Positions 21,671 to 64,000 of a stretch of 64,000 bases of DNA are shown in pieces (the stretch's first letter is position 1; each line of letters begins with the position of its first letter). Origin of the DNA: an uncultured Nitrospiraceae bacterium (GTDB taxonomy: Bacteria; Nitrospirota; Thermodesulfovibrionia; Thermodesulfovibrionales; Dissulfurispiraceae). Location: positions 832,001 through 896,000 of the forward strand of contig CAVSHF010000005.1 in the NCBI GenBank assembly GCA_963727805.1. The letters are read 5' to 3'. Made by a program: the position numbers and the translations under genes. The notes beneath the pieces were generated by a model that saw nothing but the letters and a program-made list of their open reading frames with translations, searched no databases and had not been told where the DNA came from.

Positions 21671-21949
21671 CTATCTCCGCCCCTCAATCAAAAATATGGA
21701 AAACTCTTTGTTCCCTGCTCCTGCCACATCTCTGACAACCGTCGCGGCCGTTGTGTTGCTGACATCATGGAAGCCCGATTCCTGAAGCAGCTTTTTTAGC
21801 TCTTCACGGTCGAACCCGAAGTGGAACACGCCTGTATTATCGCTGTGGAATAAACCTCCCTCCGCATCGAGATCGGCGAAGCATAGCCGACCTTCCGGCT
21901 TGAGGAGTTGATGCCACATCCTGAACAGCATGCCGGTATCAGGAACATG
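21671..21949 (-). pseudogene. 3' fragment of a class I SAM-dependent methyltransferase gene, truncated by the transposon insertion
   Basis: HVPD..LLKPEGRLCFADLD.EGGLFH..FHFGFDREEL is a methyltransferase C-terminal half; the SAM-binding N-terminus is missing and the frame runs into the transposon end at 21950. Confidence 0.8.
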
Positions 21950-22015
21950 TGTCATTTCCAAAAGATAACTTAACCTAACAACAAATAACTTAACTGATAT
22001 ACAAGATAACTTAAC
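21950..22015 (+). repeat. Tn5053/Tn402-like transposon end: 25-bp terminal repeat plus transposase-binding repeats
   Basis: TGTCATTTCCAAAAGATAACTTAAC (21950-21974); ATAACTTAAC at 21965, 21985 and 22006. Confidence 0.85.
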
Positions 22016-22150
22016 TCACCTAGCCCTTATTCCCTACTAAAGTCGGTCATTATTGCTTATAGGAGGACTTTCTTAATCTCGTTAAGTGCCTCGTTCGGCT
22101 CCGAACACAGGACTTCGAGGCCGGACACTGTTATTTCCTTGCAATATAAG

Positions 22151-22376: not shown

Positions 22377-23951
22377 TTATTTTACGATCGGCTTGTCACC
22401 GGGCAGCCCACCGAATACCGTTAGAGAATCAAGATTGGGATCCCACTGATCGTTGTTGTTCATATCCAGGTACCAATTGCCGAAGCTAGGTCTGAAAACA
22501 CCGATCTTGGTGAAGCCATTACTATTCCAGTCGCCAACAACGGGGATATCACCGGTCGTTCCAAAGGTTAAGCAAGCGTCTTTAGTCGGATCTGCGGGCG
22601 CTCCGCACCCCGCCCATATGCCAGTAGCAACGAATGCCCCAGAATAGTCAAGATACCATGTCCCATTCCTGAATACCCCTATTTTAATTCTGCCGTCTCC
22701 ATTCCAGTCGCCAACAACGGGGATATCACCGGCTATCCCAAGGGATAAGCAAGCGTCTTTAGACGGATCCGCGGGAGCTCCGCACCCCGACCATATGCCA
22801 GTAGTAGCTAATATCCCGGAATAATCAAGATACCATGTCCCATTCCTAAATACGCCTATCTTATCCTTTCCATCGGTACTGCCGTTCCAGTTACCTACAA
22901 CTGGAATATCACCAGCCTGGCCCAAGGCGATCGTTTTATCAATACCCGGATCCCATGCATTGTTACCGTTCATATCGAGCAACCATGAACCGCTTCTGAA
23001 AACACCTAATTTTATTGTGCCGCTACCGGTCCAATCGCCTGCGACCGGGATATCACCTGCAGTGCCAAAACTGATCGTAATATCGCTGGACTCCCAATAA
23101 TGGTCACCGTTGGCGTCTATATACCATGTGCCATTTCTAAAGACACCTATATTTGATGCAATGATAGATATAAATACATTTCGACCCATACCCACCGAAA
23201 CATTGCCGGCGGCGTCTTTTGCGTAAGCGTAAAGTGTATGCGCACCTCCAGTTACGGCCGTATAAGATGCGGGTGCCATTGACGACCATCCCGCGGCTCC
23301 AGCACTTGGGGCAGCGGGGTTTTCAGTAATAATATATCCTGTTACCGCTACGTTGTCCGAGGCAGTCAAAAGGGTAACTGGAACCTGGAGGGTGTGTACA
23401 ACTGCAGGAATAGTGAACCCGTTCACTGTCGGCGCCTGGTTATCAATTATGGAAACTGTTGCGCTTACGCCTACTGAAACATTGTTGGCAGCGTCTTTTG
23501 CATAAGCGTAAAGAGTATGCACACCTGTAGTAGCAGCCGTATACGATGTGGGTGCCGTTGACGACCATCCCACGGCTCCGGCACTAGGGGCAGTCGCGCT
23601 TTCAGTAATAATATATCCTACTACCGCTACGTTGTCCGAGGCAGTAAATACGGTAACCGGAACCTGGAGGGTGTTGAACACCACTGCGGGAACAGTGAAC
23701 CCGGTTACTGTCGGAGCTATGGTATCAAGGCCGGAGGCACCTGAAACCGTCTTGGACAACCGATTGCCCATCGCGTCATAGTTATAAACTATAGCGGTCC
23801 CATCTGAATTCGTAACCTGTGCCAGCTGGTTTAAACCGTCATAGCCATAAACACTTGTTGTTGTTGTGGCGAAAGTTGTAGTGGTGTGTGCACAGAAGCA
23901 CAGAATCATCACAGTAAAGACAATATATAGAAACTTAGAAAAACTCTTCAT
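22377..23951 (-). CDS. Secreted protein with N-terminal YD (RHS) repeats, two Ig-like repeats and FG-GAP/VCBS-like repeats
   Basis: Signal peptide; YGYDGLNQL..YNYDAMGNR; two DxxAPTV..HTLYAYAKDAA units; repeated GDIPVVGDWNGDG..IGVFRNGTWYLD. Confidence 0.8.
   Translation of the reverse strand: MKSFSKFLYIVFTVMILCFCAHTTTTFATTTTSVYGYDGLNQLAQVTNSDGTAIVYNYDAMGNRLSKTVSGASGLDTIAPTVTGFTVPAVVFNTLQVPVTVFTASDNVAVVGYIITESATAPSAGAVGWSSTAPTSYTAATTGVHTLYAYAKDAANNVSVGVSATVSIIDNQAPTVNGFTIPAVVHTLQVPVTLLTASDNVAVTGYIITENPAAPSAGAAGWSSMAPASYTAVTGGAHTLYAYAKDAAGNVSVGMGRNVFISIIASNIGVFRNGTWYIDANGDHYWESSDITISFGTAGDIPVAGDWTGSGTIKLGVFRSGSWLLDMNGNNAWDPGIDKTIALGQAGDIPVVGNWNGSTDGKDKIGVFRNGTWYLDYSGILATTGIWSGCGAPADPSKDACLSLGIAGDIPVVGDWNGDGRIKIGVFRNGTWYLDYSGAFVATGIWAGCGAPADPTKDACLTFGTTGDIPVVGDWNSNGFTKIGVFRPSFGNWYLDMNNNDQWDPNLDSLTVFGGLPGDKPIVK
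22524..22860. repeat. Intragenic tandem duplication, 177-bp period (FG-GAP-like units)
   Basis: attccagtcgccaacaacggggatatcaccgg at 22524 and 22701, with continuing similarity. Confidence 0.85.
23195..23715. repeat. Intragenic tandem duplication, about 279-bp period (Ig-like units)
   Basis: gaaacattg..gcgtcttttgc at 23197 and 23476; taccgctacgttgtccgaggcagt is repeated. Confidence 0.8.
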
Positions 23952-24386
23952 TGAACCCTCCTAATTTATCTATTAATCTTTAATTCCCATATTGATGCTC
24001 ATCAGCCTGCATCGAACAATCACAGACGTTACGTTCCCCTTGCCGTCGCAAAGGTAGTTGATGCTATCTCCTTACAGCGAAAAATAATAGAAAATACCGA
24101 TGATTTTAAATACCACCCCTAAATTTCTTACAAAAAAGTTCGGCTTGTAAATTGTTTTTTGCCAGCATATCGGATAATAGTATATGTGCTATAAAACAAT
24201 TTTATTTTTTTCAGCAATCGTATCCGGTTTAGCACACCTGTTGATTCTCTTCCCGCCAAAACAAAAGGATTGCCCCCCCCTTTGCAATATCGTATGTGTA
24301 CTTATATCCAGGACTAAGTATGGTATCCCTCGAACTAACTGCTCAACCGTCCCATTTAGACATTCGCCCAAGCGTAGCGACTCCCG

Positions 24387-24782
24387 TCAATTGATAGATC
24401 TGCAAATCACCGCTCCCTCAGCTCCCCATGAAGGCTCCATGACAAACAAAATCAATTCATTGTTCTTTATCTGCTTCAAATATTTACCTATAGCGTCGCT
24501 GGTTATTACAGGTTGTGTCTCATTTGAGCTATGAATCCATTTGACCCACTGAATGATTTCCTTATCATCCAGAGGAATTTCGGTAGAAACAATAAGTCTG
24601 GAAACAACATTCTGAAAATTTAAATCATTGATTCGGAACGAAACAACATCGCTAAAACTCAAATGCGCGGCTATTCCATTTACCCGAATGAAACCAAGCA
24701 ATATTTTTTTCTCTAATCGCTTAATCTCGACAGAGACCAATTCCGCATCATGGAACCCAGACGACAATTCTTCTTTCAGCAT
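24387..24782 (-). CDS. Putative immunity protein for the RHS toxin
   Basis: 131-aa ORF directly downstream of the RHS gene, GGAG RBS, FHDA..PSWGAE motifs. Confidence 0.65.
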   Translation of the reverse strand: MLKEELSSGFHDAELVSVEIKRLEKKILLGFIRVNGIAAHLSFSDVVSFRINDLNFQNVVSRLIVSTEIPLDDKEIIQWVKWIHSSNETQPVITSDAIGKYLKQIKNNELILFVMEPSWGAEGAVICRSIN

Positions 24783-24830
24783 ATCTTTAGCTCCCCAAGC
24801 ATTTAATGAGTTTTGAATCTTATGTTGCCG

Positions 24831-27800
24831 TTATCTCCCTTGAGGCCATGGTGACACTGGATAACCTTGACCTCGTACAGGGTTGCCATTAGCATCACGA
24901 TCCCAGTTATGTGCATGTGGATCGTCATGATGATCATAATCGATATCAGTTTCCGGTTGACCATCAGCTCCGTACTGCCTCTCTTGACCACTTCCAGGAT
25001 TCTTACAGCGACTTCCCGGATCGCCAGTATTTGGTGTTTTAGCGTAAGAATTCCACCAATCTTTTGCCATATTGATCATATCTGAAATGGCGTCTCCTGC
25101 GTTTTGAAAGCCTTGCCAGATATCATTAGCCAACTGCTGATTAGCCGCTTGCTGCTGTGGTGTAGGTGGTAATATTAAAGGTAACGGAATTGGACCGGGT
25201 AACACCATTGCTTGAAGTCCAAACGGATCCACCCAGTTCACGGGACTATTGCCAACGAAACGATATAGGTTGACATCGCCGTATTCTCTCAGAGGGTCTC
25301 TATTAATCCATCTCCCCAGTGCGGCATCATAGAACCTGAACCCGTAGTACGAAAGTCCCGTGTCAGCGTCGTATTCCTTCGTCGAAAACATATACGGCTG
25401 GTCGACGGTGGCTGATTTCTTCATGAGGACACCGAAGGAATCATAGGCATAGGTGTCGACCGGTGTTTGCGTCGAGTCAATCACTGTGACCACGTTGCCC
25501 TTGCCATCGTAGAGGTAATTATAGTCCTGGCTGTTCTGCCTGAGGTTAAGCAGTCCGCCGATTCCGCCGGCACGGTTCTTACCCCACAAGTATTCTCTTT
25601 TCACAATCCAGCTATTTAGTCCGTCTTTTTCCTGCACAGAGAGGAGCCTGTCTCTAACGTAACGGATGTCACTCGCGGTTGTCCAAATCCCGTTCCCGTT
25701 CGTCTCTAATGTCTTTATCATCTCAGTAAGTACGCCATCCCCACTGTAAGAATAGCTAGTCTGGTGAGTTACGTTTTGGTTGTCGGTAAACGACGCTGAA
25801 GTAAGTCTGTTTGCAGCATCGTAACCCAGCGTCATTGGGTAGCCAGATGGTGTGTACGCCCGAGTCATGTTCCCGTCATTATCATAAATAAGCGCTGCCC
25901 CGTTAACCTTTTGCACCTGGTTAACCTTGTTTTGAGTGCTATCGGCATTTATGTAGCTGTAAGTTGTAGTGCCGTTAATGAAGTTGTCAATTACCGCTCC
26001 GTTGGTAACCGTCTCAGTGCTAATCATATCTGGATGGGTCGCATCGGCGTAAGCATACGCATAACTGCTGATGATACTGTCGCTGCCCGTATTTGGATGG
26101 TAATAATTATACAAGCCCATAAGTTTATTCAAAGGATCGTTATACTGATGTTGATATTGGGTATTACCGCCATTTGGACGCGTGAGCTTCTGCACAATTG
26201 GGCTGCTCGGACTGATTGTCGTGTCGTAGCTGTAGACATACGGAGCGTCGCTTCCCCTCTGAATGGTTGAAAGTCGGCCAATCCCATCATACCCATAAGT
26301 TATAAGTTGACTCCCCAGTGCCTGCATTGTGCTCAATTGCCCGAGAGAGTTATAGGTGTACGTAATAGTTGGCTGCGTGTCCCCGGGATATGTCACCGTC
26401 AGCAGCCGCCTGTTGTTATCATAGCCGTAGTAGAACGTCCCAATGCCATCAATCCTGTAATCAAGCCTGTTGTTAGGATCATAATGAAGCGTGACGTTCG
26501 GCGTTGCTGTTACTCCTGTTCCTGTCGTATAGTTTATATTCGTCAGGTTGTTAATGGGATCATAAAGGTACGTTGTCGTTGTCTGGGGACGCGCGGATGT
26601 AGTCAAACGGAGCAGTCCGTTGGGCCAATAGGTATAAGAGATGGAATTGCCGTCCGCATAAGTTTTCAGATTGAGCCTGTTATCATGGTCATAGCCAAAT
26701 GTCGTTACTCTGCTGTTAGCGTCGGTAAAGGAAGTCAGGTTGCTGTTGGCGTCATACCCGTATTGAAATGTTTGCAACAATGCTCCAGAAGGTCCGACGG
26801 TCTTGTAGTAGAGTCTCCTTAGTGCATCATAGGAATAGGTTGTCGTGAGCCCCGATCTATCTGTCGTGCTGTTGACCATAAAAGGACACGAGGTATTGTT
26901 AGATATCACTTCCGTCCTATTATCAGGATAGTTAATCTGTGACAGTTGATCCAACCCCATATATTGATAGGTCACATATACGCCGTCCGCATAGGTAGCA
27001 TCGGATAATCTCCCGATGTTATCAAAGTCGAAAGTGCCCATTAGCGTGTCAGATTGCGATCCCTGGTGCTTTAATATCTTATGCAAAGTGTTATTGGGCG
27101 CATCATAGACAAAACTCGTGGTCGTCTTCAATGCCGACACATTATTAGCCTCTATTGCCGAAGTAAGACGGCCATAACTGTCATATTCATACTTTGTCTC
27201 TACACTTACACTCATCCTGTCTAAAATATCAGTGACATCATGCGTGCTGTAGGAATTGTAAGTACCGTATTGATAAGTGACCGTACCAAGTCCATCAGTG
27301 ATGGTATGGACATCGACACCATTGGAATAGTAAGCATATGAAATGGTGGCATTACTGGTAGTCGGGGTGGTAATTGTGGCATCCCAGAAGTAGGTGATCC
27401 GGCCATTTGAATTATACTGATAATGCGTGGTGTGGTTGTTGGCGTCTGTAATGGAGGCTGGACGTCCGGTGACCGGATCATAGGTGTATCTCGTAAAGTT
27501 TTGCTCAGGGGTAACGATGTTCGCAAGCTTAACCTTGGGAAGGCTCGACCGGTCAAAAAAGTATGAAGTCTTCGGTGCCGCTGAAGTCAAGTTATTAGAG
27601 ATTGCACCGGTCACTGGATCCTTAAAGTAAGTAACATAGTCCCTCGGGCTAACATACCAGGTATTGGCACCATTGTAAAAATATTCTTCCGCATGATTAT
27701 TTGGGTCAGTAATGGTTATGCGGTAGTTCTTGCCCATACCCAACGGATCGTCCGGCGCAGGATAGGCGACGGCCGTTGATGAGCCGTCATTCGGCTCGAT

Positions 27801-29036
27801 TTTGAAAACCCATGTGCTACTCGACGTGCCATTGGACTTTGTGATACCTGTAAGATAACTGTCTGCATTGTAGGTATAAGTCGTGATGTAAGTTCCCATG
27901 TCGGATGCTGACACAAGATTGCCCGAGGTATCGAACAGAAAGGTCGCATGACGCGGAGAGAGAGAGGGGTCGGTGACAGTGAGGCTATCTTGGGCATACT
28001 GGAAAGAGGTTGTTTGTCCGCCGGCATCTGTGATGGTCGACAGTTTTCCCCCGACATAGCTAAGGGTAAGAGGTAACCCGTGCGGGTCTATTATTTGGAC
28101 TAAGGATGGCTTTGTAAGTCCCGACGATTGCGGGATATCGTACACATAGACGGTGTCGTCCAAAAACCTCAACTGGTATTGAGAGCCAGAGGTATGTGTC
28201 AGAGTGTTGAATACCCCAAATGGTTTTGTATAAATGCCCCCGCTAAGAGTATATGCGTCCTGTCTACCGTCAGGCATATTTACCGTTACGTTTCCGCTTC
28301 CATCCACTGCTAGGGAACTCCCATAGTTAAAAGTCCATTTGTTTCCAAAAGGAGCTGTGGCATCAATAGATGCTAGAGAGTTATAACTCAACTGAAGTTT
28401 GACCTGTGGCCCATATGCAGGCTTATACCAGATAGGAGTATCTGATATGTTCAGATTCATGTTGATCTTATTCACAGACCAGACAGGTGAACCTTGACCA
28501 CTACACGGGTCGTCGGGATTTGTATCAGTACCTAAATCATCAGCTGGCGGTGGCGAGGGATCCTTCTGTTCATATACAGCAAAAGTTGTTGTATTCCATG
28601 CGGGGGGGATATCTGGCATGGGACCCACTGTTATTTCAGCTGTAACTACGACAGGCATATTAAGAGGATTATAGGGCGCATAAGGATCACAAGATGATGA
28701 AAAACTATGCCCATACTGATCGACGCCAACCTCTTGACAATTAGCCGTGGCGAAATAATAGCCGTCCTCCGGAAAGGTATAAGTTATTCCGTACCCATAA
28801 TTGTAAATGGATCCTTTTGTTTGGTGTGTAAACCACATCGGTAAAACTTCGCAGTATAAGTCTGCTTCAACATTCATAGATAGAATCGATAGTAACAGCG
28901 TCAATACAATAGTGATCATGATCAAAAAGAATTGCATTCTCCTTTTCATTTTCACTGTCAGTAGTGAGGATGCACATTTCTTACCTTTTCCTTGCCCCAT
29001 TTCAAAAAGCGACAACAAATCACTATTATTCTTCAT
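24831..29036 (-). CDS. RHS repeat polymorphic toxin with C-terminal Ntox37-like toxin domain
   Basis: N-terminal hydrophobic signal, many YD repeats, RHS core (KEYDADTGLSYYGFRFYD..GRWINRDP..NSPVNWVDPFGL), tip KTPNTGDPG..GQERQYGADGQP..DIDYDH..PHAHNW. Confidence 0.9.
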   Translation of the reverse strand: MKNNSDLLSLFEMGQGKGKKCASSLLTVKMKRRMQFFLIMITIVLTLLLSILSMNVEADLYCEVLPMWFTHQTKGSIYNYGYGITYTFPEDGYYFATANCQEVGVDQYGHSFSSSCDPYAPYNPLNMPVVVTAEITVGPMPDIPPAWNTTTFAVYEQKDPSPPPADDLGTDTNPDDPCSGQGSPVWSVNKINMNLNISDTPIWYKPAYGPQVKLQLSYNSLASIDATAPFGNKWTFNYGSSLAVDGSGNVTVNMPDGRQDAYTLSGGIYTKPFGVFNTLTHTSGSQYQLRFLDDTVYVYDIPQSSGLTKPSLVQIIDPHGLPLTLSYVGGKLSTITDAGGQTTSFQYAQDSLTVTDPSLSPRHATFLFDTSGNLVSASDMGTYITTYTYNADSYLTGITKSNGTSSSTWVFKIEPNDGSSTAVAYPAPDDPLGMGKNYRITITDPNNHAEEYFYNGANTWYVSPRDYVTYFKDPVTGAISNNLTSAAPKTSYFFDRSSLPKVKLANIVTPEQNFTRYTYDPVTGRPASITDANNHTTHYQYNSNGRITYFWDATITTPTTSNATISYAYYSNGVDVHTITDGLGTVTYQYGTYNSYSTHDVTDILDRMSVSVETKYEYDSYGRLTSAIEANNVSALKTTTSFVYDAPNNTLHKILKHQGSQSDTLMGTFDFDNIGRLSDATYADGVYVTYQYMGLDQLSQINYPDNRTEVISNNTSCPFMVNSTTDRSGLTTTYSYDALRRLYYKTVGPSGALLQTFQYGYDANSNLTSFTDANSRVTTFGYDHDNRLNLKTYADGNSISYTYWPNGLLRLTTSARPQTTTTYLYDPINNLTNINYTTGTGVTATPNVTLHYDPNNRLDYRIDGIGTFYYGYDNNRRLLTVTYPGDTQPTITYTYNSLGQLSTMQALGSQLITYGYDGIGRLSTIQRGSDAPYVYSYDTTISPSSPIVQKLTRPNGGNTQYQHQYNDPLNKLMGLYNYYHPNTGSDSIISSYAYAYADATHPDMISTETVTNGAVIDNFINGTTTYSYINADSTQNKVNQVQKVNGAALIYDNDGNMTRAYTPSGYPMTLGYDAANRLTSASFTDNQNVTHQTSYSYSGDGVLTEMIKTLETNGNGIWTTASDIRYVRDRLLSVQEKDGLNSWIVKREYLWGKNRAGGIGGLLNLRQNSQDYNYLYDGKGNVVTVIDSTQTPVDTYAYDSFGVLMKKSATVDQPYMFSTKEYDADTGLSYYGFRFYDAALGRWINRDPLREYGDVNLYRFVGNSPVNWVDPFGLQAMVLPGPIPLPLILPPTPQQQAANQQLANDIWQGFQNAGDAISDMINMAKDWWNSYAKTPNTGDPGSRCKNPGSGQERQYGADGQPETDIDYDHHDDPHAHNWDRDANGNPVRGQGYPVSPWPQGR

Positions 29037-29669: not shown

Positions 29670-30431
29670 GTGAAAGGTCCTAAGAAGATGTCTATTCTAA
29701 GCGAGATGACCTATAGTGTGCTGAGGGTGACAACGGTTATTTCTGATCACCTTTTCTGGCCGGCGATGGAAACTTCCGGGCAGCGAGCGGCTCGAGAGCT
29801 ACAACTGCCTCCGTCTTTTATTCAACAACTATTAGCAGTCGAAGATAAACGTTTTTTCTACCACCTTGGCGTGGATTTCCTATCTGTACTGAGGGCATTG
29901 TTATTCAATATGGGGACAGCAGTGACTCGCCGGCACGGTGCAAGCACGATAACCCAACAAATATACTCCAATACTACCCGTCGCAACGGAACTTACCGAT
30001 CCACTGTCGGTTTCAAGATTGCTCAGTCGACCTGGGCAGTTAAGAGAACATTGACACACTCAAAGCTATATGTCCTTAGGGATTACTTAGATTCGGTATA
30101 TTTCGGCAAGTCTTTCTATGGGCTTAAGCAGGCTTCCGAGGGATATTTCGGACGGATCCCGCGTGACCTCTCTATAGCCGAGAGTTTCTTTTTAGTTGAG
30201 CGCATCGCAAGACCTAACAAAGTCTGCGTCAGACGGATAGAAATTCTCGCCGCCAGGAGACCCCTTGCCATCCTCCTCAAAGCTGATCTCACCATCATCT
30301 GTCAACTGGCAGCACTGTACGAACGGTATTTTAATTGTGGGGAGGTAATAGCACAATGCCTGGAGAGGTCTCTCAGGAAACAGGTCGTGCATACGTCTAC
30401 GTATTCGGAGGCTGTCTCGAGAGAGCGGTAA
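29670..30431 (+). CDS. Stand-alone peptidoglycan transglycosylase (GT51) domain protein with no obvious TM anchor
   Basis: EDKRFFYHLG (EDxxFxxHxG), GASTITQQ, KxxxLxxYLD and GLKQASEGYF; start GTG 29670 or ATG 29688. Confidence 0.85.
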   Translation: MKGPKKMSILSEMTYSVLRVTTVISDHLFWPAMETSGQRAARELQLPPSFIQQLLAVEDKRFFYHLGVDFLSVLRALLFNMGTAVTRRHGASTITQQIYSNTTRRNGTYRSTVGFKIAQSTWAVKRTLTHSKLYVLRDYLDSVYFGKSFYGLKQASEGYFGRIPRDLSIAESFFLVERIARPNKVCVRRIEILAARRPLAILLKADLTIICQLAALYERYFNCGEVIAQCLERSLRKQVVHTSTYSEAVSRER

Positions 30432-31072
30432 AAGGGTTCCAACAGGTTTTTAACGTGTATCAGAACCCGGAGAAATTGACCTTCGCAGGATTCTCTGGAG
30501 CCGAATACTCCTTCGATCTTTCTGGCCTTTACGAAGGGGCTGAAGTGTTTGTGGAGTCAAAAGGGTATCGCGATGGCTCAGGCATTCTGGACGGATACAA
30601 AGAGTTTTTGGCCAAGGCATATTGTACCTCTGTTCAGAACATGAGACACCGGAACGATCATTTCTGGTTTGTCACAAACGTGTCGTTTGGCTCTTCGATT
30701 GGTCGCCGCTTATGGTCTCCTGAATTCATTGCTGACTCACTTGGTGGATCGAAGTCGCCAAAGGCCGCGATGATTATCGGCAGTGCACCGATCGATGAAG
30801 GACATGTCCGATCCCTCAGCCAAAGAATTGCCATTGGTATCTTTACCGACTCCTTTATTAAGGTGATGGGCGTACTGTATCACTTTCAGCCGGGAGATAC
30901 GCTGTGGAGCGCAACGAAACTGATACACGGGGGCCGCATGCCACTTCCTTATTTCGACCCAATTGTGACAAGCGTGCAGCGCATGAACAATAATCAAGAT
31001 CCGAATCGAATTCGCTACGGACAGCGGCTGCATTTGCCCTGGTTCGGTATCCGCGATGCCGATAATAACTAA
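30356..31072 (+). CDS. PD-(D/E)XK restriction-fold nuclease with C-terminal LysM domain
   Basis: FDLSG..VFVESKGY nuclease motif; YHFQPGDTLWS..N..DPNRIRYGQRLHLP LysM; GGAGGT RBS before ATG 30356; overlaps the upstream gene by 76 bp. Confidence 0.72.
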   Translation: MPGEVSQETGRAYVYVFGGCLERAVKGFQQVFNVYQNPEKLTFAGFSGAEYSFDLSGLYEGAEVFVESKGYRDGSGILDGYKEFLAKAYCTSVQNMRHRNDHFWFVTNVSFGSSIGRRLWSPEFIADSLGGSKSPKAAMIIGSAPIDEGHVRSLSQRIAIGIFTDSFIKVMGVLYHFQPGDTLWSATKLIHGGRMPLPYFDPIVTSVQRMNNNQDPNRIRYGQRLHLPWFGIRDADNN

Positions 31073-31261: not shown

Positions 31262-32008
31262 ATGCCGTCGTCTAATATGATTATCATTCCTGCGGAGAAA
31301 CTTGTTGAAGGTTACGAATACGCAGTTGAGAACGGAAGTCGTCTGTTTAATGCTGCTCTTTTGCTATTGGATAAATATCCTGATAAAGCCCTTGCACTAG
31401 CACAACTTGGGCAGGAAGAAATTGGGAAATCGCTGACTATACTGGCTGCTTTTCACCTACCTGAAATTCCCACTGCTTGGACTTGGTTCTGGAAAGGCTG
31501 GAAAAGCCACACACTAAAAGCTCATAGAGCTTACCTTTATGAAATCATCTATCCATTGCGAATTGAGATGAAAGCTCCGGATGGGACAAAATACGCTGGC
31601 CACCCGTTACGAACCCCAATATCAAAAGAAAAGGAGTCAGGGCTATATGTAAATTTCGATGTAGCCTCAAGTTGCTTTGTCAATCCCATTAGTGATGTAT
31701 CAAATTTTGACGCTTTAGCACGCATCTCTACGCTATTGTATCTTAGCACAACAGCTGATGCCGTTCGGCGCGTGTTGCTCCATACAGACATACCGTTCCG
31801 GACGAAAGAATTCGGCGCTGTCGCGTTCAAAATTTGTAGCGAAGAGGTCTACCAACAGGATATGCCACAGATCCTCGAGCAGTTCGGAGCATCATCGGTA
31901 AGGCACGCCAAGATACTGCATGACCTGAACATGGCCTTGAGAAGTGTACCTCCAGGCTTCGAACATGCGACAGGACAACCTGTTGTTAACCAGTCTGATG
32001 ACACCTAA
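31262..32008 (+). CDS. AbiV-family (HEPN) abortive infection protein
   Basis: NGSRLFNAA..ALALAQLGQEEIGK..HTLK..KESGLYVNF. Confidence 0.8.
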   Translation: MPSSNMIIIPAEKLVEGYEYAVENGSRLFNAALLLLDKYPDKALALAQLGQEEIGKSLTILAAFHLPEIPTAWTWFWKGWKSHTLKAHRAYLYEIIYPLRIEMKAPDGTKYAGHPLRTPISKEKESGLYVNFDVASSCFVNPISDVSNFDALARISTLLYLSTTADAVRRVLLHTDIPFRTKEFGAVAFKICSEEVYQQDMPQILEQFGASSVRHAKILHDLNMALRSVPPGFEHATGQPVVNQSDDT

Positions 32009-32336: not shown

Positions 32337-34037
32337 GTGCCCTCGAACAAAAGAGATATAGACGGCCTCATACTGCGGGGATTATCTGATCCCAGATTCA
32401 AAGATCGGATATTCAGACTTTGCTGGATACAAGACATATTTACTAAGCCATCCCAAAACTCTTACAAGGTCCTCTTCCAGGATGTAAACTCGCCAATGTA
32501 CTTACGGGAGAGTATTTTCCCGGAACACCTCTCTTATTACACCATAGGATCTTACTATCAGAATTCCAGGCTATACAACAACAGACCTGAAATAGGCGAC
32601 ACTATCCCTATAGAAATAGAATCTACAGAAAGCAATCTTATAAAAAGAATCTCCGATGTGATTACGGATGATGAGTATGATCTCAGAACCTTTTTTACAC
32701 CGTCATCTGGCAAGGAAAAAGATTATACGTCTGAGAATAAGAGGCAATACTGTGTTATATTCGAAACCGATAAACAAATCATTATTTTCCCTTGTGCTGT
32801 AATAGGTGCCACCTATTATTTCACGTCCTCTTCCATAAGGAAACTGATATTTGTGGGGAACCTGGAAGGGCTCTACGAAAAACCTGTCAAGATTGATTAC
32901 GAGATAAAAACGGCAATGATAGTCATGAAACCGGGATCGGCAAACGAGGACGCAAAGAATATCGTCCGGTTCGTGAAAGACCTCTACGCCGATGAACTGT
33001 GGAAAACTATCAGGATTAATCTTTTGCAGGAAAAGAGGTCGGTAGAGATATTCGGAGGAGAATCATCTTTCGTTCCTCTTAAGATCGATTTCCCAGTCAA
33101 ACAGAATATTCCCATGTGGGTCAGAGCATTAAAGTTTCCTGGAAACAACGGCACGAAAGAGAAGATTTTGGTCTTTGAGATATTGAGGGAGTATAGTCGC
33201 TATGATTTCGAATATCTCATACGCGTGAGGAGGGAACAGAGCAATGTAACCTCGGCCGAAAATGAGCTCATACCGACGGAAGCTAAAAAGACCAGCAGCA
33301 CGATAATTAATGAGCCGCCAATCTCTACCCTGAGCCCAGTCACTATCATATACAACGTTGATGATAAGAACCCCAATGCTGAAAAAATCAAGATTATCGA
33401 TCTGCACATAGCAGCTACTGATTCCACAATCCGTCCACTGCGCGAAATCTCCGACGAATTAGTGGATATAAGTCTCATTCAACCCGAATTGCACGGAGAG
33501 GAGTCCGTGAGACCAGGATCTATTGAGCAATCACATCAAGAACCGCAAAAGACGAAAAATAAATTAGCCTTTAGCCTCAAGGATTTTTGGTATATGACTG
33601 AGATACTCAAAAGCCACACAGATGTTGTAAATTTCCAAGTATATGAACCGCAGTTAATGCCAGCGAGGGATGAGGCAAGTCAAAAATTCTCTCTGAGGGA
33701 AGCGTACAACAAGGTATCCAGACAAAGGAGAGAATATCTGCATGTGACATTCAAATACCTCAACTTTAGTGTATGCCTCATAGAAATAGATCAGACTGCC
33801 TTGCCAAGCGGTTGTTCCACTTATGGATTGGTGATCAAGGGTGATTACAAGTTTACCCAGAGCAACATCGAAGATGTTCTGAATGCCTATGTAAGACGTG
33901 CGAAGATCGTGATGATTTCCGATAAAATGAAAAAACAGGGATTCATATTCTTATCTAAACATCATCCTGGAAAGACAGAAGACAGTTATTATGAAAGGTG
34001 GTGTGAGGAGCTTTTGAGAAAGATAAAGATTTTATGA
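32337..34037 (+). CDS. TnsE-like Tn7 target-selection protein (distant)
   Basis: 566 aa; IIFPCAVIGATYYF mid-region, acidic low-complexity linker, and C-terminal R(E)Y..V..CLIEID..STY..HHP..W pattern resembling TnsE_C. Confidence 0.55.
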   Translation: MPSNKRDIDGLILRGLSDPRFKDRIFRLCWIQDIFTKPSQNSYKVLFQDVNSPMYLRESIFPEHLSYYTIGSYYQNSRLYNNRPEIGDTIPIEIESTESNLIKRISDVITDDEYDLRTFFTPSSGKEKDYTSENKRQYCVIFETDKQIIIFPCAVIGATYYFTSSSIRKLIFVGNLEGLYEKPVKIDYEIKTAMIVMKPGSANEDAKNIVRFVKDLYADELWKTIRINLLQEKRSVEIFGGESSFVPLKIDFPVKQNIPMWVRALKFPGNNGTKEKILVFEILREYSRYDFEYLIRVRREQSNVTSAENELIPTEAKKTSSTIINEPPISTLSPVTIIYNVDDKNPNAEKIKIIDLHIAATDSTIRPLREISDELVDISLIQPELHGEESVRPGSIEQSHQEPQKTKNKLAFSLKDFWYMTEILKSHTDVVNFQVYEPQLMPARDEASQKFSLREAYNKVSRQRREYLHVTFKYLNFSVCLIEIDQTALPSGCSTYGLVIKGDYKFTQSNIEDVLNAYVRRAKIVMISDKMKKQGFIFLSKHHPGKTEDSYYERWCEELLRKIKIL

Positions 34038-34324: not shown

Positions 34325-35458
34325 ATGGCAATCAAGAGGGTATTTGTCAGTGATGTTCATATGAGTCCTGGTTGGAGTTTGCCCACCCCTCAGCGCTCAT
34401 ACGACTGGTTTAGCATCAGCCAAGCGCAAGAATTTGGGGCTTTCCTTGATAAAATGATTACTGATAAAACGATAGGCGAAGTGATACTTTTGGGTGACCT
34501 CATGGATGGATGGGTTTATCCAATCGAGACTAAGCCACCTATATATGCCGAGACAGCCAGCGCACTTCATATTGCCCCTATTATGAAGAAATTGAGGGAA
34601 CTTGCCAGGAATAAGCCGGTTATCTATGTTATAGGGAATCACGATATGACCCTAGCAGAGGCACAATTTGACAATTTCAGAACAACCGGGCTTGCGGGGA
34701 TTACATTTCAGGATATTTATGAAACGCCGGACGGACTTTTTGCTGCTCACGGGCATCAATATACCATGTATAACGCCGTTGATCCGAAACACGATTCAAA
34801 ACACAAACTTCCTCTAGGGCATTACATTTCCCGTCTTGCAGCCACTGTGGCCGAACGAAAAAACATCCGCTACAGCACTGCTGATATTGCAGCTATTGTC
34901 AGGGAAAGCTGTTCCGCTCAGTTAATAGCTTCGGGATTATTTGACCTGCTAGTGAATATACCGTTAAATCATTTAGCTAATGAATTGGGCAACATGGGAG
35001 ATAAAACTCAGATTAAAACGGTTGACGGCAAAAAAACTACTTTAGCTGCAATCAAACAACAATACTCGCGATTAGCCCACGATTGGGGAGAAGAACATGG
35101 ACTCCTCGCCCCTTTACAGTCAATCGAATGGGAAACTGAAGCAGTAGGGCTCTGCGGAGTAGCCGATCAAATAGCTAGAGGCACTCTGACTTCTTTTAAC
35201 ATCACCGTGGGTAAAAGGTACAAAGTGGTAATCTTCGGACATACTCATAAAGCAGACATTGAATATTTGCAAACACCTGATTTGCCAACTTCGCCGGAAC
35301 CAATTGATCGTTACGGTATTTATGCAAATTGTGGGGCGTGGTGCCTCAAAAAAGACGAACCTACTTACGTGATAGACGAATATGATCAAACCACCGGCGA
35401 GCACAAAATTACGTTAACCTATAGAGATCCGGCTAACAATATTCAACTTACAATTTAA
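34325..35458 (+). CDS. Calcineurin-like metallophosphoesterase
   Basis: SDVH, GDLMD, GNHD, HGH and GHTH motifs; AGGAGG RBS. Confidence 0.9.
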   Translation: MAIKRVFVSDVHMSPGWSLPTPQRSYDWFSISQAQEFGAFLDKMITDKTIGEVILLGDLMDGWVYPIETKPPIYAETASALHIAPIMKKLRELARNKPVIYVIGNHDMTLAEAQFDNFRTTGLAGITFQDIYETPDGLFAAHGHQYTMYNAVDPKHDSKHKLPLGHYISRLAATVAERKNIRYSTADIAAIVRESCSAQLIASGLFDLLVNIPLNHLANELGNMGDKTQIKTVDGKKTTLAAIKQQYSRLAHDWGEEHGLLAPLQSIEWETEAVGLCGVADQIARGTLTSFNITVGKRYKVVIFGHTHKADIEYLQTPDLPTSPEPIDRYGIYANCGAWCLKKDEPTYVIDEYDQTTGEHKITLTYRDPANNIQLTI

Positions 35459-35472
35459 ATACATGGAGACAA

Positions 35473-36348
35473 ATGACGCTCATAGAGGAACAGTTAACCG
35501 ATAAGGAGAAACTCATGGACACATTTGAGCTTTGGTCTTACGATGTCAGTGGTGATTTGGGACAATATGCAGAGCACACTTATATTAAGTGTCCTGATAA
35601 GGGAACGTATTTTGACTGTTGGGGTAACCATCAATCTCCAACTGAAGGAGCGGGTGTCCACCGTTTTTCCTGTGAAGGGATATATGAGGTGGCTGACTGT
35701 TACAGAAAGAATATTGGGGAAATTAAAGATACAGCGGGCATTGGTGTTTATGGCGTAAACGGAGTCTGCCATCAGACCGCAAACCTGTTTCTTTATTCGA
35801 CGGGACGGGCCATAACCATTGCTGACGGGGTAAAGGGCTATTGGCTTAGCAGCCTTGCTTACGGAACATATGGTGATCTGAATCCCTTTGATACGCCCAT
35901 CAAACCACTTTTTGTGGAAGCCTGGAAACTTACTGTATACAACCCTTGCTATCAAACATACGCCGATGGGAAAGGCAAAGGTAATGAGCTTTTCCAAAGT
36001 CTCGCGAAATTACACAAAACAATTGTGCAGGACAGGATCAAGATATCGCATCCTGAACTGATCCACCATGAAGCATCCATCCTTGCAAAACAGGTATTGC
36101 CTGAACTGAACACCGACCTTTTTGAAGATATTCATATCGATTTTCTGAGAGAAAAGCGTGCCATTATAACAACCAGGTTGAAGGGAGTTGATTTAGGCAA
36201 CAAGATTAACGAAGGCGCAGCTCAGTTTCAGATATCCCTGGCTCAAAGAATAGGAGCTGAGGCGTATAAAAAACTGACAGGATTGAATGCGGGGGAAACA
36301 CTGCGGATCATAGACCCAGCAATTGCAGCAAAAGCGGCTAAACAATGA
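35473..36348 (+). CDS. Hypothetical protein, possible permuted papain-like (His...Cys) enzyme
   Basis: AEHTY followed by YGVNGVCHQ, i.e. His before Cys; 14 bp after the upstream gene. Confidence 0.55.
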   Translation: MTLIEEQLTDKEKLMDTFELWSYDVSGDLGQYAEHTYIKCPDKGTYFDCWGNHQSPTEGAGVHRFSCEGIYEVADCYRKNIGEIKDTAGIGVYGVNGVCHQTANLFLYSTGRAITIADGVKGYWLSSLAYGTYGDLNPFDTPIKPLFVEAWKLTVYNPCYQTYADGKGKGNELFQSLAKLHKTIVQDRIKISHPELIHHEASILAKQVLPELNTDLFEDIHIDFLREKRAIITTRLKGVDLGNKINEGAAQFQISLAQRIGAEAYKKLTGLNAGETLRIIDPAIAAKAAKQ

Positions 36349-36500
36349 CAATGGACATAGCCAATTATCCATATGTTTGAATCCTTACAATTATCTGACC
36401 ATTTATAGGTGGTAGTGATGAAAATAAGGCTCGTTAGAATTCTGAATATCTTTGGACGCCCAGACAAAAATCTCAAGGATGAATTGAAGGGAGGAGTGAG

Positions 36501-37535
36501 ATGGACATAGAATTCCATTATTACATGACTCACCTGATTGCATTAAGGGCTGGCTTCAAAAAAGAAGATGCTCTGAAAATAGCCTATGCAAGCCAATATA
36601 CGGATGATAATGATGAATCGCGTAAGATCATGGGAGGGGATACGCCATACTACAATTCAATAAGCCAAACGTCGGATATTCAAAAGCCACAGGAAGAACG
36701 ACTGAGCATATACCCGATATTTCACTTCTGTCCTGGCACAAAAGATGAGATGTTCAAATATTCGCCATTGCGCAAGGATGGCGGTTTTAATCTACTTACA
36801 ACTATTCGGGATAATAGTAATGCGCGGAAGATTTTCGATGATGCTCTCAAGGCTGGCGACGTATATCGCATCGGCATCGGGACACACATGTATGCGGATA
36901 CGTTTTGCCATAGGGACTTTTCAGGGTGGAAGGATGCATTTAACTGGATCAAGCTGAAAGGATTTGCCGGAGGAGTATGGAATGCTGTGGGACCAGCAAT
37001 CGGGCATGCACTTGCGATGCATAATCCGGATATACCATCTCTTGTATGGGAAGACACGCGGCTGACTTCAAAGTACAGCCTTAAAAAAAATAAAGAACAG
37101 ATCCTCATGGCAGCAGGAAACATCTTCGATATTTATTGCGGGCTGACTAAACCGGGAAAAAAGAAATCTGCCAGCAGAGATAAGCTTCTCGGCGATCTTA
37201 GTGACGCCATAGGGAACGAGGCCGAGACCGATTCGACCAAAGATGTTCGTGTTAAAAATTACAGAATTCTTCTCGATCTCGATTATAGGGAATACGATGA
37301 ACAGCAATGGTTTGATAGTGCAGTTGATGAAGTAGTAGATCCTAAAACAGTGGGCACCTCTAATCTTAGAATGCTTATTTGGAAACAAGATTATATGAAA
37401 AGTGACTGGTACTTGTTTCAGGAGGCGGTAAAAGAGCATCATGAAGCGGCGATGTATGTTCTTAAGGATACGTTTGATTTGATGGAAATAGATGAAAAAA
37501 TGCTGGTGGGCAAGTCTACTGGTGATACGGAGTAA
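36501..37535 (+). CDS. DUF6765-like protein (phospholipase C/P1 nuclease-like Zn motifs)
   Basis: FHYY, ASQYTDD, FHF and GIGTHMYADTFCH; GGAGG RBS. Confidence 0.7.
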   Translation: MDIEFHYYMTHLIALRAGFKKEDALKIAYASQYTDDNDESRKIMGGDTPYYNSISQTSDIQKPQEERLSIYPIFHFCPGTKDEMFKYSPLRKDGGFNLLTTIRDNSNARKIFDDALKAGDVYRIGIGTHMYADTFCHRDFSGWKDAFNWIKLKGFAGGVWNAVGPAIGHALAMHNPDIPSLVWEDTRLTSKYSLKKNKEQILMAAGNIFDIYCGLTKPGKKKSASRDKLLGDLSDAIGNEAETDSTKDVRVKNYRILLDLDYREYDEQQWFDSAVDEVVDPKTVGTSNLRMLIWKQDYMKSDWYLFQEAVKEHHEAAMYVLKDTFDLMEIDEKMLVGKSTGDTE

Positions 37536-40030: not shown

Positions 40031-40126
40031 AACCGCGAATTTTAACAAATAGAAGAGTTGGAAGCTCAATAAAGGTATGTTCACATGGCTTTAGATAGGG
40101 AAAGTCATCAAAAAGGAGACTATATC

Positions 40127-40738
40127 ATGAAAAAAAGTATGATCGAGCTGACTACAGTACCTTCAAGTAAGAAGAACATCGAAGAATCAGTGTGCGAAAC
40201 ATCTGAGATTCGCTTTTATCGGGCAAATGAGAAACTCTATGGTGCCTTTAGCAATCTCTATCGCAGGAATATTCTTTTTGAGGGGCGGGTGTATCCTTCA
40301 GCTGAGCACGCTTACCAAGCAGGGAAAGCTAGAAAGGAAGCTGTAAGAGAATGGATATTGAGTGCGCCTTCTCCCGCCCTAGTGGCAATGGCGGCTCATG
40401 GACTTTACACTTGGGATATTGTGCCCAATTGGGCTGCTATTAAATTTGAACGTATGCAACAGGTACTGCATGCCAAATTTACTCAACACGATGACCTCTG
40501 TGAATTGCTGCTTTCTACTGGCGATGCGCGACTTGTTGAAGCGGGTACGGTCGATAGTCCTATTAACCGGCTATGGGGCGAAGTAAACGGTAAGGGTCAG
40601 AACATGTTGGGTGTCCTATTAATGAAATTGAGAGTAGCACTACAGAGCGAACTCGCTTTCCAAAAGGACATAACAAAGTGTAGAATTAACAATCTCAGAG
40701 TAATTGGAAGACAGGACACTATTTGTGTAGGGGAATAA
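40127..40738 (+). CDS. NADAR (YbiA-like) family N-glycosidase
   Basis: FSN..YPSAEHAYQA.K, W..K..M..AKFTQH..LLSTG..LVE..WG..GQNMLG..LM..R; AGGAG RBS. Confidence 0.9.
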   Translation: MKKSMIELTTVPSSKKNIEESVCETSEIRFYRANEKLYGAFSNLYRRNILFEGRVYPSAEHAYQAGKARKEAVREWILSAPSPALVAMAAHGLYTWDIVPNWAAIKFERMQQVLHAKFTQHDDLCELLLSTGDARLVEAGTVDSPINRLWGEVNGKGQNMLGVLLMKLRVALQSELAFQKDITKCRINNLRVIGRQDTICVGE

Positions 40739-40758
40739 CATTCTAATTTTTTCTCTAA

Positions 40759-42711: not shown

Positions 42712-42713
42712 AT

Positions 42714-43874: not shown

Positions 43875-43880
43875 CAGAAT

Positions 43881-45821: not shown

Positions 45822-45823
45822 CC

Positions 45824-61694: not shown

Positions 61695-62924
61695 TTAAAT
61701 GCCCCTCTTATCCCCTGTTCCTTTTTTCGTTATCGCCCCGATCCTTACATTGTTTCTGGCAATCAAATCTCTTATGTCCCCTCTCTCATCAAGATGTAGA
61801 AAATTCCCCGTTGTTTTCAAGACACTTTCTCTACAAACTGCTATATGTCGCCTCTTTAGATGTTCGATAACGCTCTGTATCTCATCACAGGTTATAGCGT
61901 AATACTCCATACTGAAGGGATCAGCAATAACCTTATAAAAAAAGGGCAGGTAGAGCAGATCTTTTGTCAATTCTGTCTTTCCTAATTCATTCCTTTCGCA
62001 GAATGTTATAAGATTTTCGGGGAAATTCTCAAAGATCATTATTAATCCCGAAAATAACAGGTACTGAATCTTTAATGGGATATCATAGAAAAGAATATGC
62101 CTCCGCTTAATGACAGGAAAGTCAATTCGTTGTGCCATGGATTCATGGTCCAGTAACCCCTTATCGAATCCCCAGTTGTAGGCAATTTTTATAAACTGCT
62201 GCAAGACACTGTAAAACAGAAATGAATAGGCATAGCGATCGCCGAAACTGAAGATACCAGTCTCCAAAATTTTATATAGCTCTTTTATGGCCCTCAGCCC
62301 ATATGAGTCTGGGTCTACAAACTCTGGTTCCGATTTTGAGAAGTCAAATCCGCACTTATAACAGATCGGGAAATTCTTGTAATAATAACTTCTTCTCAGC
62401 GTTATCGGTATACCGCACTGGGAGCACCGGTCTAATAAGAAGCATCCATGAACAATGCAGGCAGTCGAAAAAGAAAGCCTCCACCTCTTCCTAAAATATC
62501 TGGCGTGGTGCGCTTTTAAGCATAGTGGGCAAAACCTCAGACCGTATCCCTTCGTTATCCTGCTGCGGATAACCAGGGGCTGTATGAATGGCATGCTTGT
62601 GGCTGATATCTCTTCGGCAAGATACCCCTGGTAGGACTTGAGAGTAAGGTTGCAAAGTATTTCATTGCTCAAGAGACACTTGTGCTCAAGCGCCTCCAAA
62701 AGCTTTTGATCAGGTGAAATATCCACATCTCTTGTCCATAAGATATTTTTCCATTCGGGCAGATAAAGGTTTACAAATGTGGCAGGATCCGTCAAGTGAG
62801 CAAGGGCAGTTCTAGTCAGCCATGAACTGAGAAGTTCATCATCCTGAGGAGTAAGACAATATCGGAATTTGTTATTTGCGAAATTGATACGCTTGCTGTC
62901 TATCTTATAAGCAAGAAGGCTCAT
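61695..62924 (-). CDS. tniQ: TniQ-family transposition protein
   Basis: P..DELLSSWL.R.A, RFCPLCL..W....C..H..L.DRC..C and CYKCG; ATGA overlap with the tniB stop. Confidence 0.88.
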   Translation of the reverse strand: MSLLAYKIDSKRINFANNKFRYCLTPQDDELLSSWLTRTALAHLTDPATFVNLYLPEWKNILWTRDVDISPDQKLLEALEHKCLLSNEILCNLTLKSYQGYLAEEISATSMPFIQPLVIRSRITKGYGLRFCPLCLKAHHARYFRKRWRLSFSTACIVHGCFLLDRCSQCGIPITLRRSYYYKNFPICYKCGFDFSKSEPEFVDPDSYGLRAIKELYKILETGIFSFGDRYAYSFLFYSVLQQFIKIAYNWGFDKGLLDHESMAQRIDFPVIKRRHILFYDIPLKIQYLLFSGLIMIFENFPENLITFCERNELGKTELTKDLLYLPFFYKVIADPFSMEYYAITCDEIQSVIEHLKRRHIAVCRESVLKTTGNFLHLDERGDIRDLIARNNVRIGAITKKGTGDKRGI

Positions 62925-63823
62925 ACATCTACCAGTGCAAGCCCGCGTCTCTGGGATGGCCTGATAAATCCACACTCCTTTATAATATCCTCTGTTATCT
63001 TCTCGCTACCTGATTTTATCCCAAATATGGCCGCCTCGCTGATGACGCTGATTATCTCCCCAATTAATCCCTCGCTTAAAGCCAAGACCGTCCTGCCTAT
63101 TTTGCTGTTTGTCGATATCTTGGAGAGTTTTCTTAACGGCAACATCATTTCTATGCTTGCAAGCAGGGATGCGTAATCCGCATTGAGTCTCCAAAGCGGG
63201 AGCAACATTGGCCTGAATCTACTACTGATCTGCATGTCGGTACTGGTGGCATTTAGAGCATCCTTTATACCAACAAGGACTATAGGTAGCATCAGCGCAT
63301 TGCTGATATTCTTCAGCGCGTTCATAAAAGCTTTCTGCTTTGGAACCGACCCACTTAAGATATTGTGGATCTCATCTACAATGAGCACCCCAACGCCCAT
63401 ACTTTCAAAATGATATTTTATTTCTGATGCCTTTTTAGTTAAAGAATCGCTCTTTCTGTGGGGAATTAGTATTGTGTCCAGGATTGCATCATAAAGACCG
63501 TTCGGATCAGGAGTGATCGGTGCCTGCACACAAACTACCGACATTGCCGGTTCTTCCCTTCCATCCGTTGGCAGATGTAATCTCTCGAATTTCTTAACCA
63601 GACTCGTTTTGCCGTTATGACTGTCACCAATAATCAAAAGACATGGCATCCTCGATTTCTTCGGTTCATTTAACAGGTCCTCCATCTTCAGGAGAATTAC
63701 TTCAGCCTTTGGATACATAATAAATTTGTCCGCCTTTATATATCGTATCCGTTCGCGGTCAGGGCTCCACAGCAGTTCCTCTGCTTCCGGGCTTAGAACT
63801 ATTTTATCCTGCACAATATCCAT
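62921..63823 (-). CDS. tniB: TniB-family NTP-binding protein
   Basis: P..SRMPCLLIIGDSHNGKT, LIVDEIHN.L.G, VLVG..Q..SRF and SEG.IGE. Confidence 0.92.
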   Translation of the reverse strand: MDIVQDKIVLSPEAEELLWSPDRERIRYIKADKFIMYPKAEVILLKMEDLLNEPKKSRMPCLLIIGDSHNGKTSLVKKFERLHLPTDGREEPAMSVVCVQAPITPDPNGLYDAILDTILIPHRKSDSLTKKASEIKYHFESMGVGVLIVDEIHNILSGSVPKQKAFMNALKNISNALMLPIVLVGIKDALNATSTDMQISSRFRPMLLPLWRLNADYASLLASIEMMLPLRKLSKISTNSKIGRTVLALSEGLIGEIISVISEAAIFGIKSGSEKITEDIIKECGFIRPSQRRGLALVDV

Positions 63824-64000
63824 CAACGTCTTTCATCCTCATCTGACTCTCTGCGAATCACTTCTATGTCTTTGAAAGGCTTGGGGTTTGTAAAAATATC
63901 ATCAACCCGAGCTTCCACCGCTTTCCGAGTGCTTTCAGGTTCGTCCTTAACAGCCTTATGAAGAGGTTCGGCTTTCCCTTCGTCCGTCTGTCCCGTGCCT
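63823..64000 (-). CDS. tniA: C-terminal end of a TniA/TnsB-like DDE transposase (partial, runs off the window)
   Basis: ..DDIFTNPKPFKDIEVI..* ending; TGATG coupling to tniB. Confidence 0.6.
   Translation of the reverse strand, partial: GTGQTDEGKAEPLHKAVKDEPESTRKAVEARVDDIFTNPKPFKDIEVIRRESDEDERR

Follow-up and report, generated by a model that had tools for sequence, protein, structure and literature searches.

A conserved, mobile two-gene cassette pairing an anchor-less GT51-fold protein with a predicted PD-(D/E)XK nuclease that bears a LysM domain

In CBASS Cap4 and in the type III CRISPR effectors Card1/Can2, a PD-(D/E)XK nuclease is combined with a ligand-binding domain, and the logic of these systems is that such a nuclease–sensor effector is encoded beside a possible ligand-making enzyme. 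The gene pair described here (gene A and gene B) resembles them in the make-up of gene B and in this effector-plus-partner logic, whereas its sensor is a LysM domain instead of SAVED or CARF, its partner is a GT51-fold protein instead of a nucleotide cyclase, and its ligand would be a glycan or a lipid-linked glycan. Lamassu LmuA and Avs3/Avs4 possess a nuclease domain similar to that of gene B (Foldseek ranks 1–3); however, the cassette has no SMC or STAND ATPase and no PADLOC match. On the side of gene A, the closest described proteins are the monofunctional GT51 glycosyltransferases MtgA/SgtB and the GT domain of class A PBPs, which share with it the fold, motif 1 with the catalytic Glu, the core of motif 2, the motif-3 Lys, two conserved Tyr and a hydrophobic jaw helix. 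Unlike these enzymes, gene A has no anchor or export signal, has lost the QQxxK Lys, the RKxxE Arg and Glu and the motif-4 Asn, carries an FFLxERxAxPN signature of its own, is mobile and is tied to a nuclease gene. Lipid II is also at stake in conflict for TelC and the predicted Min-Wnt antiviral effectors, and the accessible text of the lipocone paper presents it as a conflict target (PMC12419801); these lipocone-fold proteins destroy lipid II, whereas for a GT51 and a nuclease it would be the signal. An abstract-level literature search gave no description of a GT51 plus LysM–nuclease pair, although an unnamed listing may exist in the supplements of large defence-prediction studies. The pair is a real, conserved and undescribed two-gene cassette, and a wall-precursor glycan, if it does act as the alarm inside the cell, would be a signal of a type that is absent from the literature searched.

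The window, that is, the whole 64,000-nucleotide stretch of DNA analysed, contains the cassette and its immediate neighbour as follows.

29688..30431, forward strand: gene A, anchor-less GT51-fold protein, 247 aa from ATG
29841..29870, forward strand: GT51 motif 1 of gene A, EDKRFFYHLG, with catalytic Glu52
29937..29972, forward strand: GT51 motif 2 of gene A, GASTITQQ then IYSN
30012..30026, forward strand: altered motif 3 of gene A, FKIAQ (canonical RKxxE)
30186..30218, forward strand: subfamily signature of gene A, FFLVERIARPN, with conserved acidic residue 171 and Arg172
30356..31072, forward strand: gene B, PD-(D/E)XK nuclease fold plus C-terminal LysM, 238 aa, ATG start
30365..30871, forward strand: predicted nuclease domain of gene B with E4, D54, E67 and K69, from structural matches and conservation
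30872..31042, forward strand: LysM domain of gene B with a 9–10 residue insertion between helices, from fold match and relatives
31262..32008, forward strand: AbiV-family HEPN gene, a neighbour outside the cassette (PF18728, E=1.8e-10; TIGR04498)

Gene A, for which GTG 29670 is an alternative start, matches Pfam Transgly (PF00912) over residues 38–185 with E=1e-35 and 123 bits (cut-off 27); no Pfam match to a transpeptidase domain and nothing else of weight was found, and NCBIfam matches were limited to the GT part of PBPs, far under the cut-offs. With its structural model (pLDDT 90, low in confidence from residue 232 on, the last ~25 residues overlapping gene B), Foldseek places GT51 structures on top (E=2.8e-7; probability 1.00 to 3d3h, 2oqo and 3vms). 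The maximum 19-residue hydropathy ahead of motif 1 is 0.97, compared with 1.86–2.72 in the host's three canonical GT51s, and remains at or below 1.63 across the gene-A family (43 of 46 rows scorable), in which a lipobox or Tat pattern was seen in 0 of 46 rows. By this measure gene A lacks the N-terminal membrane anchor of canonical polymerases, and its product is predicted to be cytoplasmic. The protein is basic (34 K+R versus 20 D+E) and has amphipathic helices, which together with the missing anchor would fit a protein lodged at the membrane's inner face.

The motifs of gene A divide into kept and lost parts. Motif 1 follows the canonical EDxxFxxHxG with its catalytic Glu, and E52, D53, K54 and R55 are found in 45/45 rows having a residue there in the family alignment. 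In motif 2, G84, S86, T87, Q90 and Q91 are present in 46/46 rows, but the QQxxK Lys is replaced by Ser94, and Lys at this position occurs in 0/46 rows versus 12/12 canonical controls. Motif 3 retains K110 (46/46) and has Q113 in 45/46 rows, with Glu in none of the 46 and Arg109 in one; the canonical QQxxK and RKxxE, with Lys, Arg and Glu all present in 12/12 controls, are thereby departed from in both motifs. The motif-3 Glu is important for GT51 function. The subfamily signature has E/D171, R172 and P176 in 46/46 rows, and E/D171 and R172 are absent from the aligned solved GT51s, whose loop differs there. Gene-A residues were given provisional S. aureus MGT numbers, with the offset taken from the residue names in the available sections of PMC6053601 and PMC3608906, and the spacings fit. 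In these numbers, E100, D101, R103, H107, G109, D111, R117, G130, S132, T133, Q136, K153, Y176 and Y181 are kept in 43–46 of 46 rows, a set that takes in the catalytic base and the jaw pocket as well as two of the three acceptor pyrophosphate contacts named in those sections (PMC6053601, PMC3608906). Beside the motif-3 Arg and Glu, the family has lost K140 (0/46) and the motif-4 Asn (2/46), and R148 is largely lost, with Arg in 9 of 44 scored rows, all of them divergent; K140 and R148 hold the donor-site phosphate according to the available text of PMC6053601 (for GT51 background, in excerpt, see also PMC4810414 and PMC4632607).

Because the donor-site basic residues and the motif-3 Glu are lost family-wide, a role as an ordinary polymerase is unlikely. 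From these residue patterns we infer that gene A binds lipid II at the acceptor site without polymerising it processively in the ordinary way; mere binding of lipid II, or attenuated transfer, seems more likely than processive activity. An earlier note, made from the letters of the window, had reported a GT51 domain without transpeptidase, with no clear TM helix and with an altered motif 3, all of which agrees with the profile, hydropathy and alignment results. Its description of the catalytic motifs as intact holds for EDKRFFYHLG and GASTITQQ, but not for motif 2 as a whole, and the ordinary lipid II polymerisation that it ascribed to the GT51 fold is unlikely for gene A.

Gene B, modelled with pLDDT 88.8 and pTM 0.87, aligns over residues 5–175 to PD-(D/E)XK proteins (XisH-type 2okf, Z 9.7; 2vld, Z 9.2), and structural matches of the domain also include NucS-type proteins, Card1/Can2, LmuA, Cap4 and Avs3, the last being the sole Foldseek match with E<0.001. 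D54, E67 and K69 are present in 47/47 gene-B rows and E4 in 44/44 rows having a residue, so the modelled alpha–beta core presents the conserved E...D...ExK of PD-(D/E)XK enzymes, and gene B is predicted to cut nucleic acid. The C-terminal domain reaches E=5.6e-4 and 20.2 bits with the Pfam LysM profile, just under the cut-off of 20.9, and residues 172–231 align to the solved LysM 4uz2 (Z 5.8, rmsd 1.8 over 48 residues), with a further match to the chitinase LysM 5k2l (E=0.0044). Its assignment as LysM (PF01476) follows from the beta–alpha–alpha–beta fold and from the profile, since PF01476 is carried by relatives, the Atlas cluster is 71% LysM, and the LysM of the split form in genome G084 (see below) lies above the Pfam cut-off. 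The G-D/E-x-L-W and N...I-x-x-G pattern is kept, and the domain would bind a GlcNAc-containing glycan; LysM can also act as a protein-contact module. No signal peptide was seen in gene B. A lipoprotein signal was considered and rejected, as the N-region is acidic or neutral in 44/44 rows and Cys is absent from 16/47, and the lipobox-bearing helix is the one that holds the invariant E4 of the nuclease core, which argues against an export signal.

A profile of gene B retrieved 106 proteins, nearly all from its family, and 27 gene-B loci (2 in genomes and 25 in metagenomes), which were gathered by searching with gene B and several of which duplicate one another. At 25 of these loci the gene immediately upstream, in the same orientation, is a relative of gene A, and the two others (L018 and L022) have 33 and 0 bases of upstream DNA. 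The linked loci include a contig-edge fragment (L013) and three with a damaged gene A: in L009 and L023 an IS3 element breaks gene A, probably in one event, with gene B intact (full-length in L009), and in L020 a frameshifted gene A, possibly an assembly error, stands ahead of an intact gene B. The overlap of the two genes in the window is exactly 76 bp, a length present in 8 of 16 A–B pairs; 26 of 45 gene-A relatives end in the tail generated by the overlapping gene-B start, and 13 of 45 share the size of their longest contig with a gene-B relative, a proxy for co-occurrence. Across loci, no further conserved neighbour surrounds the pair. Gene A and gene B are a real unit, and both are under purifying selection, with dN/dS relative to the window of 0.13–0.17 in the GT51 core and 0.08–0.16 in the nuclease (three of eight comparisons unsaturated in each) and of 0.10–0.14 in the LysM (five of eight unsaturated). 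The distances of A and B are correlated (r=0.86 over 16 pairs, reached by 0 of 10,000 permutations; r=0.80 when restricted to the 11 closest), which is what genes that move together would be expected to show, and separate A and B trees have little resolution for the most part. A full A–B fusion was absent from the best 150 profile matches; the candidate P0163, in which the first half of A runs into the rear part of B and the D and ExK of the nuclease are missing, looks like a deletion or an assembly chimera.

The cassette is rare, patchy and mobile. Searches of 60 same-family genomes, 100 relatives and 400 genomes of the phylum found it in 0, 1 and 1 of them, respectively, and it also occurs in Hydrogenedentota and Pseudomonadota records. 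When 401, 135 and 401 genomes were searched with the gene-A profile (937 genome searches), short high-scoring GT51s appeared in the four known gene-B genomes only, the other matches being long class A PBPs; neither a gene A without gene B nor a new cassette turned up in these searches, and because no new cassette was found, this reverse search adds little. The host has three ordinary membrane-anchored GT51 genes and one cassette copy. A short broken GT51 fragment (L032, G000:C3:1779815-1779955) lies ~6 kb from an intact host class A PBP gene. A phage origin was rejected, since no relative was found in viral contigs or annotated phages, and plasmid searches gave canonical PBPs only with gene A, besides one weak Arthrobacter match.

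In the window, the cassette lies in a Tn7-like element of ~44.7 kb, of which the following parts were located.

21945..22016, no strand: element end, with target duplication ACATG at 21945-21949, terminus from 21950 and three repeated binding-site-like motifs
61695..63826, reverse strand: tniQ and tniB (TnsC-like), Pfam TniQ E=8.8e-26 and TniB E=1.3e-64

The other end and the second ACATG are at L040:5665-5670, ~2.7 kb past the window. Both ends are inverted copies starting TGTCATT (window 21950; L040:5665), each flanked by the 5-bp ACATG, and the next two ORFs past the window edge were read by eye as TnsB and TnsA, so that tnsA/B/C, tniQ, inverted ends and a 5-bp duplication are all in place for Tn7-like cargo. 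The insertion (window 21945-21950; L040:5665-6021) apparently interrupts the gene for a SAM-dependent methyltransferase that comes right after miaA, and such a target is unusual among elements that carry TniQ.

A split form of the cassette in G084 consists of three overlapping genes, which encode a GT51 of the gene-A subfamily, a nuclease of 183 aa that has no LysM, and a protein of 326 aa whose C-terminal LysM follows an N-terminal part without assignment. This GT51 scores 183 bits, against 67–103 for canonical host enzymes (HHalign 99.95%), and has drifted further in motifs 2 and 3; its island also carries an integrase, RadC, coupling proteins and QatABC. In a FastTree phylogeny of 53 selected nuclease rows, the G084 nuclease and 12 other proteins of 177–188 aa are sister to 19 LysM-fused rows (support 0.93), the gene context of the split form coming from one genome (G084). 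That a LysM gene stands beside GT51 and nuclease even when unfused strengthens the idea that the LysM works with the GT51, and is the best sign that glycan-handling and glycan-binding domains cooperate. In the LysM protein of the split form (L037:10993-11973), the first ~270 residues have no Pfam or PDB sequence match. A nuclease of 26% identity occurs in two Streptomyces records, where it lies in a Tn7-like stretch beside a different partner and GT51 is absent, and the nuclease of the Streptomyces plasmid falls outside the GT51-linked clade in the tree. On this plasmid (NZ_CP109295.1, L036:5938-7964), the related nuclease is accompanied by a 474-aa protein without annotation, again as Tn7-like cargo. 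It belongs to a wider, unannotated family of 185–205-aa nucleases, which may function in further undescribed systems.

The genomic context was scanned at 19 loci (duplicates merged) with at least one neighbour. A defence or toxin gene is nearby at 8/19 loci, and within 1.5 kb at 7/19: AbiV in the window, Qat in G084, PDC-M48B in L002, FRG and PDC-S15 in L007, IetAS, TIR and NACHT in L010, SLATT and AbiV in L011, RES in L014 and Lit in L021. In comparison, 16 neighbours within 1.5 kb of 10 canonical GT51 loci gave 0 PADLOC matches, the control being small and many cassette contigs short. No defence neighbour was found at 11 of the 19 scanned loci, and L005 and L024 sit among metabolic or housekeeping genes, with a cassette G+C 0.11 and 0.16 below that of the flanks. 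AbiV was rejected as a third component, as it stands beside the pair at just one other locus (L011). No profile of the PADLOC 2.0 and NCBIfam 20 defence systems matches the cassette components (best PADLOC E for gene A or B 0.02), and a CD-NTase gene or SAVED/CARF sensor, as in CBASS/Cap4, was not found as a conserved neighbour. A defence or conflict role for the pair is probable. At L001:8071-9126, and at this locus only, the gene directly upstream of the cassette encodes a peptidoglycan-binding domain together with motifs that look lysozyme-like.

For gene B and its surroundings, the earlier note is borne out throughout: the 76-bp overlap is exact (ATG 30356, stop 31072), the PD-(D/E)XK core and the C-terminal LysM have their structural matches although the latter is weak in Pfam, no signal peptide was seen, AbiV starts at 31262, and the pair is transposon cargo. 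What it had expected of further searches, namely linked homologues, predicted nuclease and LysM folds and a blank in PADLOC, was likewise found. Its interpretation, in which cytoplasmic lipid II or glycan chains, for example after phage interference with cell-wall synthesis, could switch on the nuclease, is supported in part.

We tentatively favour, at somewhat short of an even chance, a mobile two-gene anti-phage suicide cassette in which a wall-precursor glycan would activate the nuclease of gene B; a little more doubtful is an immune system in which a repurposed peptidoglycan transglycosylase would convert cytoplasm-facing lipid II into the ligand of a LysM receptor, so that a wall glycan, formed or exposed on the side of the membrane where it does not belong, would be the second messenger. 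The product of gene A would be placed at the inner leaflet, where it would capture lipid II via its kept acceptor site and jaw. The trigger may be a build-up of inner-leaflet lipid II, or infection may directly activate protein A or open a gate. Protein A would then present lipid II or make a short GlcNAc–MurNAc glycan, with transfer weak or non-processive because the donor site is remodelled; the partner LysM would bind this glycan, ligand-driven clustering would switch on the PD-(D/E)XK nuclease, and the active nuclease would kill or arrest the cell. A route for the lipid II trigger exists, since lipid II accumulates in the inner leaflet when phage proteins lock MurJ, as the accessible text of PMC10229422 describes. 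We count in favour of this glycan signal the match of the kept residues to the acceptor and jaw pocket described in the excerpts of PMC6053601 and PMC3608906, the linkage of A and B, the split form, the low dN/dS, the matches of the nuclease to defence effectors and the defence neighbours. The intact gene B behind an IS-broken gene A fits a B that is silent without A; alternatively, the insertion may simply silence B. Lipid II is made on the inner leaflet continuously, and a glycan signal must therefore assume a threshold or a gate. Also counted against it are the lost donor-site Lys/Arg and motif-3 Glu, which may mean that there is no glycan product, the 11/19 loci without a defence neighbour (some among housekeeping genes), the window LysM under the Pfam cut-off and the single genome behind the split-form context.

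Defence may also proceed without a glycan messenger, if protein A is a decoy or guard for a phage protein or envelope damage that activates the nuclease by contact, with LysM as the docking module. The remodelled donor site with its new invariant E/D171 and R172 would suit such a guard, as would the 76-bp overlap in 8/16 pairs, which suggests coupled and equal expression; the defence neighbourhoods would be identical under this account, and related nucleases have unrelated partners. However, the invariant catalytic Glu and acceptor-side residues point to a small-molecule ligand, and the split form keeps LysM as a gene of its own with the G-D/E-x-L-W and N...I-x-x-G pattern, and we regard a guard as rather unlikely. 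Less probable again is a toxin–antitoxin or addiction module in which a cytoplasmic GT51 would act as toxin by holding lipid II or its carrier at the wrong face of the membrane, with the LysM protein keeping it in check. Lipid II is a target of existing toxins (TelC, in the accessible text of PMC12419801), the distribution is mobile and patchy (0/60 same-family genomes), and the natural breaks observed lie in A with B intact and never the other way round. Breaks in B would be under-counted, however, since the loci were gathered via B, and an antitoxin has no need of four invariant nuclease residues.

The anatomy of the pair would also fit an envelope-stress or antibiotic response, in which stalled wall synthesis of any cause leads to dormancy, death or mobilisation of the element with no link to phage. 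Several loci without defence neighbours agree with this, but IetAS, SLATT, AbiV, Lit, Qat and RES genes are adjacent at several others, and we judge the response improbable. A secreted toxin, with an exported LysM nuclease that binds and kills competitors through their wall and gene A as helper or immunity protein, could draw on the Rhs genes of the same transposon and on a lipobox-like pattern near residue 20 in 24/105 gene-B proteins, but is very improbable given the N-region, Cys and E4-helix data above, the lack of a Tat motif and the lack of a conserved secretion gene nearby. The order of antitoxin upstream and toxin downstream is common and would suit protein A as antitoxin of a constitutively active nuclease B, which is just as hard to credit beside a full-length B behind the IS-broken A of L009 and behind the frameshifted A of L020 (possibly an assembly error).

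If the glycan signal holds, a non-nucleotide messenger would be added to bacterial immunity, cells would be seen to guard lipid II traffic, a step that several phage lysis proteins attack, and the cassette would correspond, in bacteria, to the LysM pattern receptors while guarding the cell's own wall pathway. The loss of the anchor, the kept acceptor site, the rebuilt donor site and the LysM nuclease partner point to a new use of the GT51 fold. Even with a defence role alone, the pair would be a small system of two genes within 1.4 kb, and the remodelled GT51 lends itself to telling the functions of donor and acceptor site apart.

The transposon carries several other genes in the window. An EcoRII-like restriction pair is among its cargo, and a Rhs protein of 1401 aa, an Imm50-like neighbour and a second RHS-repeat protein are encoded at 22377-29036. 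A 566-aa ORF at 32337-34037 has no Pfam, PADLOC or NCBIfam match, and its end may resemble TnsE-like proteins; at 34325-37535 a metallophosphoesterase, a 291-aa ORF without assignment and a DUF6765 protein (zinc phospholipase C-like) follow in a row. The operon-like run at 40085-47990 encodes NADAR, a HAD-domain protein, PRTase-CE, an ORC-CDC6-like ATPase, a triple-CARF protein and a PfkB kinase, and reads as a nucleotide-centred conflict system.
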